Assembly: GCA_013265495.1 (NCBI GenBank)
Contig: MU058217.1
Coordinates: forward strand, 62,001 to 126,000
Direction: 5' to 3'
DNA from: Vicugna vicugna
Taxonomy: Eukaryota
DNA length: 64,000 nt
How positions within the stretch are numbered: the first letter of the stretch is position 1; each line of letters starts with the position of its first letter. A program made the position numbers and the translations under genes. Under the pieces are notes generated by a model. That model searched no databases. It saw nothing but the letters and a program-made list of their open reading frames with translations, and had not been told where the DNA came from. This document shows positions 35,001-38,000 of the stretch, piece after piece.

Positions 35001-38000
35001 AGCTGACAAATGACAGACTGCGACATAAAGAAAGAAGCCCCGCGGGGAGGATACAGCTCAGTGGTAGATAGAGCACGTGCTTAGCATGCACGAGGTCCTC
35101 AAACCCCAGTACCTTCATTAAAATAAGTTAATTAAATAAAAACCTAACTACCCACCCCACCAAAAAAAGTCACTGGTTAAAAAATAAGTTAAAAAAAAAA
35201 AGAAGCCCAAATTCAAACCCATGTTCTTTGCCACTTTACTATTCTACATTCTTTTTTAATTTATTTTTTATTATTATTGTTATTATTTTTTAATGGAGGT
35301 GCTGGGGATTGAACCCAGGACCTCGTGCATGCTAAGCACACACTCTCCCCCTGAGCTATTCCCCACCCCTATTCTACACTCTTGGAAACAGTAGAGATGC
35401 AAGCTCTTTTAAAGGTGAGCAGGACCTAGTGCCTGGCTCAACACAGCATGTCACGGGTGGAAAAGAAGGATGTATCACCCCAAGCTTTCAAGTTTAAGGA
35501 GCCAGAAGAGTGATGGTACCATCCACGTCAATGGGCAAAGCAGGAAGAAGGGATAGTTAAGGGACTGCAAAGAGTCAGGCACGCATTTGACCTCTTATTA
35601 AGTCCTCACCACTTTCCCTGGGTTTTTACTGACTTGTCTCCATAACCAGCAAGGAGGTGATGGTCCCAACCCAGGAGGTGCTGTCCCCGGCAAGCAGCAT
35701 TTCTCTACCTTCTCGGTGAGCTCGATGCAGGCAGCCAGGTCCATCCCGAAGTCACCTGGACACCTAGAGAACTACGTGAAACTGCCAATATTCCAACTGC
35801 TTTTAACCATCTCCAAACACTCGCAGGCTGTGTCAAGGTTTTGTACTTCTCTCTCAGCTGCTAGCCTGGCAGCCTGCACAAATCAGGAAGGTGCTTAATA
35901 TAGAGTGTTAATTGTCCACATGGTATCTCCTTTACTCGTACACCCCTTCGTGGTAAGATCAGACTCCCACAGTGCTCGGTAACTATATGTTTCTTAATGA
36001 AACTTAAATATCAGTACACCAAGATCGACCTCTTATTAAAGAATGTATCTAGGAGGCAAATTGAAAGTTCTTGAAAACCTGGGACCCTGCACCATGAGGT
36101 TGAAACTCCATTTGACAAATCCAGGCCTGGGGCATGTGAGAACATAAAAATATCAAAAAGATTTACAGAAAACATTTCTGGGAGGAGCTAGGGCCTGACT
36201 GGAGATTTTAGCAGCTGCTGTCTTGTGTGACACCCGCTCTCCTCTTTCTTCAGTGGCTGACAAAGCTGGGTACCTGATGGGTCTGAATTCTGCAGAAATG
36301 CTGAAAGGCCTGTGCTGTCCACGGGTGAAGGTTGGGAACGAATATGTCACTAAAGGGCAGAATGTCCAGCAGGTAATGGAGATGCTCTGAATCCAGCTGA
36401 CTCAGGCATTTTGCTGTGTTAACTGTCATCCTCAAGTTCTTTCGGTTGCAGGTCTCGGAAAAACATATGAAACGGGCTTCAGCAGGAAGGGGGAATTCAT
36501 TCTCAGGCCCCAGGGGTGACTCAAGGAATGAAAGTCAAAGTGTGCCTTGGGCGCCACAAGGGCCTGGAGCCAGGCAGCCTCTCTCTGGCTCCTTCTCTGG
36601 GGCTCCGTGAACTGTCTTTTCCCTCCCGCTCTGTTGTGTGCTCACTAGGGAGACCTTCTCCACCTCTCCTGTCCACGGCCACCCCATAGCTCCCAAGTTT
36701 ACACCTCTGTCATTCCAGCCCCTTCCTGAGACTGAGACCAGCAGCTTTTGATCCCAATTCCAAATTCTCGGGAGAGACACTCTGTTTAGCCCAACTTGGA
36801 TCAGATGTCCACCTCTCATTCAATTAAGTGTGGCCGGGCTAGAGTTATGTGTTAGAACCGTGGCTGTTAGAAAACGATCTTTGTAAACAGGATAGTCCAC
36901 ACGAACTGAACAGGTGCCTACAGATAGATTCAATATTAGGTTGAACTGTATGAAATTGCCAATCTCTTCCTGCTTTTGACCTTCAAGATGTCAGCTTCAC
37001 GTGCTTCAACTTAATACAATCATAAAAACGCTAACTTGAGGGTTGAATGGATGATCCTTTTTCAAGGTGACCAATGCAGTGGGTGCTCTGGCCAAAGCCG
37101 TCTACGAGAAGATGTTCCTGTGGATGGTCACCCGCATCAACCAGCAGCTGGACACCAAGCAGCCCCGGCAGTACTTCATCGGGGTCTTGGACATCGCGGG
37201 CTTTGAGATCTTTGATGTGAGTGGTTTGGATGAGTGGACACCCTTCCGCTCTGTGTCCTCTTTGCTGAGTCTCCACTAAATTCTCCAAACTCACTCAGAC
37301 TCTTCGGTATTTGAAACACCCAGTTCAACAGCCTGGAGCAGCTGTGCATCAACTTCACCAACGAGAAACTGCAACAGTTTTTCAACCACCACATGTTCGT
37401 GCTGGAGCAGGAGGAGTACAAGAAGGAGGGCATCGAGTGGACGTTCATCGACTTCGGGATGGACCTGGCTGCCTGCATTGAGCTCATCGAAAAGGTAAAG
37501 AAATGCTGCTCCCCGGGGACAGTGCCTCCTTGGTGGGACCATCGCCTCTTTGCTTAGCCCCTCCCTGCTAACAGACCAGTGCCTCTAACCCTACTCCCCC
37601 AGGCTGTGAGCCTTCGGGGAGCTGAATCCCCTGTGCAGGAAGGGTAGGTGTTTAGAAAGCACCAGAATCTGCGCAGACACTTACAGGGCTACGTGGGTGA
37701 TTAAGACCCAGGCGCTCAGCTATCTCTAAGAATGCAGCCCGGGGTGACTTCGGGGTTTCATTCACACCTGACTTGTCCGAAGACCCAAGGAGGGGGGACC
37801 ACGGAGCAGTGGGGTTCCTGGAGGAATGTTACTATGAGAACAGCAGACAGCACTAGCTTTGAAAACGGAATTCCATCACATTTTGAGCACTGGTCATTTT
37901 GGAAGTGTATCTTCCTAAGGTGGCTACTGAGAAACCCAGAAGTTACTGTTTAAAATAGGACCCATATGATTTTAAGCCTATGTTTGCAACTTTACATTTT

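Follow-up and report, generated by a model that had tools for sequence, protein, structure and literature searches.

The window analysed here, 64,000 nucleotides of Vicugna vicugna contig MU058217.1, carries the MYH13 gene on its plus strand (22837..64000). The gene has 38 coding exons, the last three of them beyond the window, and 1934 codons without a stop; its last few residues were not located. Every acceptor is AG and every donor GT except one, a GC at 60392 that follows coding exon 31 (60267-60391) and is the sole non-GT donor among the 38 exons. The exon 11 peptide is identical at 39 of 39 residues to PDB 5H53 (MyHC-EO/IIL), which is also the best match for exon 12, and five paralogs in the same orientation, found on two contigs, leave MYH13 as the last gene of a six-gene fast myosin array. 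The host is an intact MYH13, with both the isoform-diagnostic sequence and the last place in the array. MYH13 is the superfast myosin used in extraocular (eye) muscle. The last exons of an upstream myosin paralog, which we take from gene order to be MYH8, lie at 19-130 and 1078-1287; a perfect 28-nt palindrome sits between the genes (10756-10783), and a 71-nt tandem duplication (91.5%) occupies 21388-21529, about 1.3 kb upstream of the MYH13 start codon. The accessible text of a preprint (bioRxiv 10.1101/2025.10.28.684953) places the main use of MYH13 in amniotes in specialised muscles, those of the larynx among them. The metagenome contigs searched for orthologs held 0 loci with the MYH13 exon 11 pattern.

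Coding exons 11 (36254..36372, 119 nt) and 12 (37067..37216, 150 nt, residues 422-471), both on the plus strand, lie in the loop between two arms of an inverted repeat, the second of which includes the end of coding exon 13 (37324..37494, plus strand, 171 nt, residues 472-528, 97-99% identical to the five paralogs). Exon 12 ends in DIAGFE, which we take to be the switch II motif, and exon 13 presumably encodes the relay region of the myosin motor. The upstream arm is an inverted copy of 106 nt (35648..35753, minus strand) in MYH13 intron 10 (33309-36253) that comprises the 3' end of exon 13, its donor and 60 nt of intron 13; the source arm, about 1.7 kb downstream (37450..37554, plus strand), holds the last 45 nt of coding exon 13, the donor at 37495 and the first 60 nt of intron 13. 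The first-pass annotation had reported this inverted match, and both self-blastn (106 columns, 88.7%, E 1e-31) and a global alignment (11 mismatches and one indel) reproduce it. Nine of the 11 mismatches are transitions and two are transversions; read as RNA pairs, they give six G-U wobbles, two cases of a source A facing a copy C, one of a source C facing a copy A, and the two transversions. The source A opposite copy C occurs at 37491, in the exon, and at 37498, the donor +4 position; these counts, too, agree with the earlier ones. The 60 intron bases account for eight of the mismatches and the indel.

A search of the animal's own genome (2.03 Gb) matched the intron-derived part of the copy to MYH13 alone, and the exon-derived 47 nt also to the five paralogs at 94-98%. 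Since the copy includes intron sequence unique to MYH13, it derives from that gene's DNA or unspliced RNA, as had been claimed. In a sequencing-run search with 24 rows, 14 DNA-type or unlabelled runs with four organism labels held 0.84-0.93 of the sampled words, which speaks against an assembly artefact, although the copy makes up about 6% of those words, so that its presence in a given run is not demonstrable, and the run with the highest share may be that of the source sample. Six RNA runs (0.05-0.33 of the sampled words), none of them from a tissue known to express MYH13, provide no evidence.

The copy derives from another genomic site that stays intact, and neither a target-site duplication (TSD) nor a poly(A) or other A run was found at it, the longest direct flank match being 4 nt (an old TSD could have decayed). 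A processed, L1-mediated retrocopy was rejected on the lack of both and on the 60 nt of intron kept. The match between copy and source does not extend into the flanks, one of which holds a MITE fragment, a 43-nt truncated relative of a palindromic MITE-like repeat (35769..35811, plus strand, aligning to 36943-36984) that starts 15 nt past the right end of the copy. The first-pass annotation had pointed to a 12-mer common to the right junction of the copy and a second site as a possible trace of template switching. It does recur, at 37743..37754 on the plus strand, but nine of its 12 bases belong to the copied segment and it adds three; 10 of 400 random junctions reach a match of at least 12 nt within +/-2.5 kb, there are two junctions to choose from, and as a template-switch scar the 12-mer is weak evidence.

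The arms differ at seven of the 93 non-CpG columns, and their divergence is put at 7.5-13%. Mammalian sequence is substituted at a rate near 2e-9 per site per year, and the two figures together suggest that the copy is roughly 20-40 million years old. Four of the 12 CpG-type columns differ against seven of the 93 others (Fisher p=0.02, a partly circular comparison of descriptive use), and four of the 11 mismatches are, by their context, CpG decay, as expected of methylated DNA.

The retained intron and the lack of a TSD and of poly(A) fit a class 2 templated insertion or a template switch during replication. Class 2 templated insertions (TSI/TSIP) are presented, in the accessible part of PMC5110952, as repair patches without TSD or poly(A) that measured 73-414 bp in experiments. 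They resemble the copy in being short patches with the donor left in place and neither mark of retroposition, whereas the donor there is distant and here lies 1.7 kb away in the same gene, and the event here is old, with 11% divergence. Template-switch or MMBIR insertions, as far as the available text of PMC7954356 and PMC8421209 describes them, share a nearby template and inverted copying; the difference here lies at the junctions, whose microhomology would have to be read from the ancestral site and where the 12-mer contributes three bases.

Folded together, copy and source give a predicted duplex of -203.8 kcal/mol, whereas the separate arms reach -32.2 and -28.4; the copy by itself has no structure of its own (z=0.47). 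In the predicted minimum free energy (MFE) structure of 35600-37600, 100 of the 106 copy bases and eight of the nine donor positions are paired, and the duplex dominates the regional fold. A donor-masking duplex of the kind first proposed is therefore physically possible, as a prediction. Exon-intron editing complementary sequences (ECS) show long-range complementarity at a splice site and are defined by conservation, compensation or observed editing; the stable complementarity within a few kb by which pairs of conserved complementary regions (PCCR) and ECS are recognised is present in our prediction. As the arms are still 89% alike and less than 2 kb apart, pairing and editing may take place in part of the nascent transcripts, as with inverted Alu pairs.

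Inverted Alus within 2000 nt of each other pair and get edited, by the accessible account in PMC2533698, and such pairs (PMC2533698, PMC13019027), as there described, resemble the present one in forming a long imperfect duplex with arms less than 2 kb apart and exons in the loop. They belong to a transposon family, whereas here the sequence is unique and the exon end with its donor forms one of the arms. The available text of PMC13019027 also indicates that folding energy barely distinguishes skippable from constitutive exons between inverted Alus. PCCR, which share with our pair a long-range complementarity overlapping a splice site, are defined in the accessible part of PMC8052449 by cross-species conservation, compensatory change or seen editing, whereas our pair is predicted from the sequence of one genome; by the same account, complementary regions are scarce where splice sites are active and rich in editing sites.

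These observations are what a selected cis-regulator would draw on, in which the copy captures the exon 13 donor during transcription and delays U1 or recruits ADAR (+4 A to I), diverting a fixed share of the MYH13 transcripts into retention, skipping or decay. Besides the pairing of 100 copy bases and eight donor positions, the editing of nearby inverted Alus and the depletion of complementary regions at active splice sites, it gains from the predicted effect of editing on the donor. With a splice-site matrix trained locally on 77 donors and 72 acceptors of this contig (among them an exon 2 acceptor at the wrong place and an exon 37 candidate entered twice), the exon 13 donor is middling, the 45th weakest of 77 on this small local matrix, and a G at +4 (37498) lowers its score from 7.2 to 5.3 on the same matrix. 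Against such a regulator, pre-mRNA folding is said to favour nearby partners, some 50 nt behind the polymerase, in the part of PMC2077896 available (citing Eperon 1988).

The consequences of skipping also weigh against it. Exon sizes of 119, 150 and 171 nt, checked on the sequence together with the reading frame, bear out the statement that skipping exon 13 or exons 12 and 13 keeps the frame and that skipping exons 11-13 shifts it. Myosin relay and switch II are essential elements of the motor. Skipping exon 13 removes residues 472-528, skipping exons 12 and 13 removes DIAGFE as well, skipping exons 11-13 leads to a stop after residue 408 and skipping exons 11 and 12 to a stop after residue 433, so that each product lacks DIAGFE, LEQLCIN or both, or ends early. 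The in-frame skip products lack essential motor elements. No skip product is likely to be a working motor, and with every product either a dead motor or frameshifted, any function would have to be down-regulation.

If pairing were selected, changes that preserve it should be in excess, and the comparisons of arm against arm give no clear sign of this. A transition in an inverted repeat gives G-U or A-C with equal odds, and G-U in six of nine transitions has a binomial p of 0.25; when the letters were swapped between the arms at the 11 mismatches, 18.6% of the 2048 arrangements were equally stable. CpG-aware simulations of duplex energy from two reconstructed ancestors gave p=0.07 and 0.36. A naive null gave p=0.025 and was set aside, for it takes the present source as the ancestor and the energy of the 'perfect' duplex varies by 11 kcal/mol with the arm chosen. 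In the 45 nt that the copy took from the exon, a single change stands against an expectation of about three (p=0.20). The six wobbles to which the first-pass annotation had drawn attention thus hold as a count and not as an excess over chance (p=0.25; fair energy nulls p=0.07-0.36). We infer no sign of selection to keep pairing, which, with low-power tests on few sites of one genome, reads as no signal rather than as proof of neutrality.

The A-C mismatch at 37491, cited earlier as a favoured editing site, is present. The copy corresponds to C at 37479 and G at 37491, and so does each of the five paralogs; with the paralog state taken as ancestral, both changes therefore arose in the MYH13 exon. 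The mismatch is thus exon-derived, A>G at 37491 is synonymous, which counts against the cis-regulator, and it restores the paralog base, so that mis-mapped paralog reads would mimic editing. With this evidence on both sides, a selected splicing or editing element has a small chance of being correct, and the cis-regulator as set out above is improbable.

The two private changes in exon 13 are also the main argument for a slightly harmful relic, in which the duplex would hinder exon 13 splicing and the synonymous changes would have been favoured for weakening it. Of the two MYH13-private changes in exon 13, both are among the 45 bases that pair (p=0.068); the predicted pairing of the copy is -90.3 kcal/mol with its own exon against -98.8 with four of the paralogs. 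Yet four other homogenised exons, which have no copy, contain three MYH13-private differences between them, and each is found no more than 20 nt from an exon end, where 0.8 would be expected; an edge effect of homogenisation thus explains the position of the exon 13 changes. Tens of millions of years have, moreover, brought no deletion and left the duplex at -204 kcal/mol, and we regard the harmful relic as having a slim chance.

Homogenisation among the paralogs is patchy: the MYH13 exons at 25620, 37067, 37324, 58242 and 63790 are 97-99% identical to the best paralog, and many other MYH13 exons stand at 72-85%. A tract at 25409-25782 (93.9% to a paralog) spans an intron, and two of the five paralogs (L004 and L005 of L003-L007) have common intron bases directly after exon 13. 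The pattern over the six paralogs looks like gene conversion.

A further role might be imagined in trans, with excised intron 10 or small RNAs from the 106-bp duplex targeting exon 13 of six myosin mRNAs. The 47 nt of the copy match the five paralogs at 94-98%, with predicted pairing of -94 to -99 kcal/mol. This match, however, follows from paralog homogenisation and from the older bases of the copy; an Rfam search of 33000-39500 returned no family except a SINE-derived tRNA match, the copy lacks a fold of its own, and such antisense action is highly improbable.

On the plus strand the copy could instead supply a poison exon of 66 nt (35650-35715): its left edge offers an acceptor, the single change in its exon part creates a donor, and inclusion would bring an in-frame stop at the fourth codon. 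Its acceptor outscores 19% of the real acceptors and its donor 30% of the real donors. The 34,340 nt of MYH13 introns hold 81 pseudo-exons of equal or better score, itself counted, so that it is no better than background; it was set aside as a notable feature, and a poison exon is very unlikely.

How unusual the element is locally was assessed by self-blast over 306 kb covering the six myosin genes, which gave 67 same-contig inverted pairs, with cross-contig pairs left out of the count. Three of the 67 overlap exons and all three involve 35648-35753; the copy is the only exon-overlapping inverted element in the 306 kb of the six-gene cluster, a scarcity that makes the element locally rare. Inverted pairs of at least 50 nt within 5 kb number four, and two of the three others sit in the window among repeated elements. 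The palindromic MITE-like repeat at 36932-37016, which we take to be MER53-like, ends some 50 nt short of the exon 12 acceptor and folds as a hairpin; the repeat is dispersed in the genome, with four of five relatives elsewhere at 76-79%. In the intron that holds the copy there are also two tRNA-derived SINEs in opposite orientation and less than 200 nt apart (35046-35165 and 35286-35363), presumably of a camelid family. Their predicted duplex has -105.5 kcal/mol, and the opposed pair is a more ordinary candidate for editing.

We propose that the copy is, quite probably, an old templated insertion or short inverted duplication that has been tolerated and drifts neutrally. Replication or break repair in germ-line cells would have copied 105 nt spanning the exon 13 donor and patched them, in inverted orientation, into intron 10, 1.7 kb upstream. 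Afterwards both arms drifted, mostly by transitions and CpG decay as the alignment has it, over what may have been 20-40 million years; with the gene intact, exon 13 indispensable and no selection visible in the sequence, the copy would be a tolerated relic and no switch. The first-pass annotation had allowed that the copy might be a neutral relic, and this is the better-supported branch, given the non-significant wobble excess, the exon-derived A-C mismatch and the non-functional skip products. On the other side stand a long, strong duplex that dominates the regional MFE structure, the naive null (p=0.025) and the lower of the CpG-aware values (p=0.07), the one change against about three in the exon part (p=0.20), the standing of the copy as the only such element in the cluster, and the reliance on one genome with few sites and low power. 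The opposite reading, in which the inverted duplication is an antisense arm that meters superfast myosin through a masked or edited exon 13 donor and perhaps also acts on the five paralog mRNAs, is improbable. The literature searched, with subscription journals and supplements outside its scope, held no report of this MYH13 element.

For work on MYH13 transcripts there is a practical warning: apparent A>G at 37491 can stem from paralog reads, and apparent A>G at 37491 or 37498 can stem from reads of the copy itself. If the copy is neutral, an indispensable constitutive exon has for millions of years tolerated a near-perfect 106-bp antisense to its donor 1.7 kb upstream, and the locus would serve as a clean minigene made by nature in which to ask how well pairing over a long range competes with U1. 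If it is functional, a splicing switch would have been born in a single mutational step without a transposon, and if the antisense-arm reading proved true, inverted exon copies could be signs of a general way to gain splicing switches that needs no transposon.
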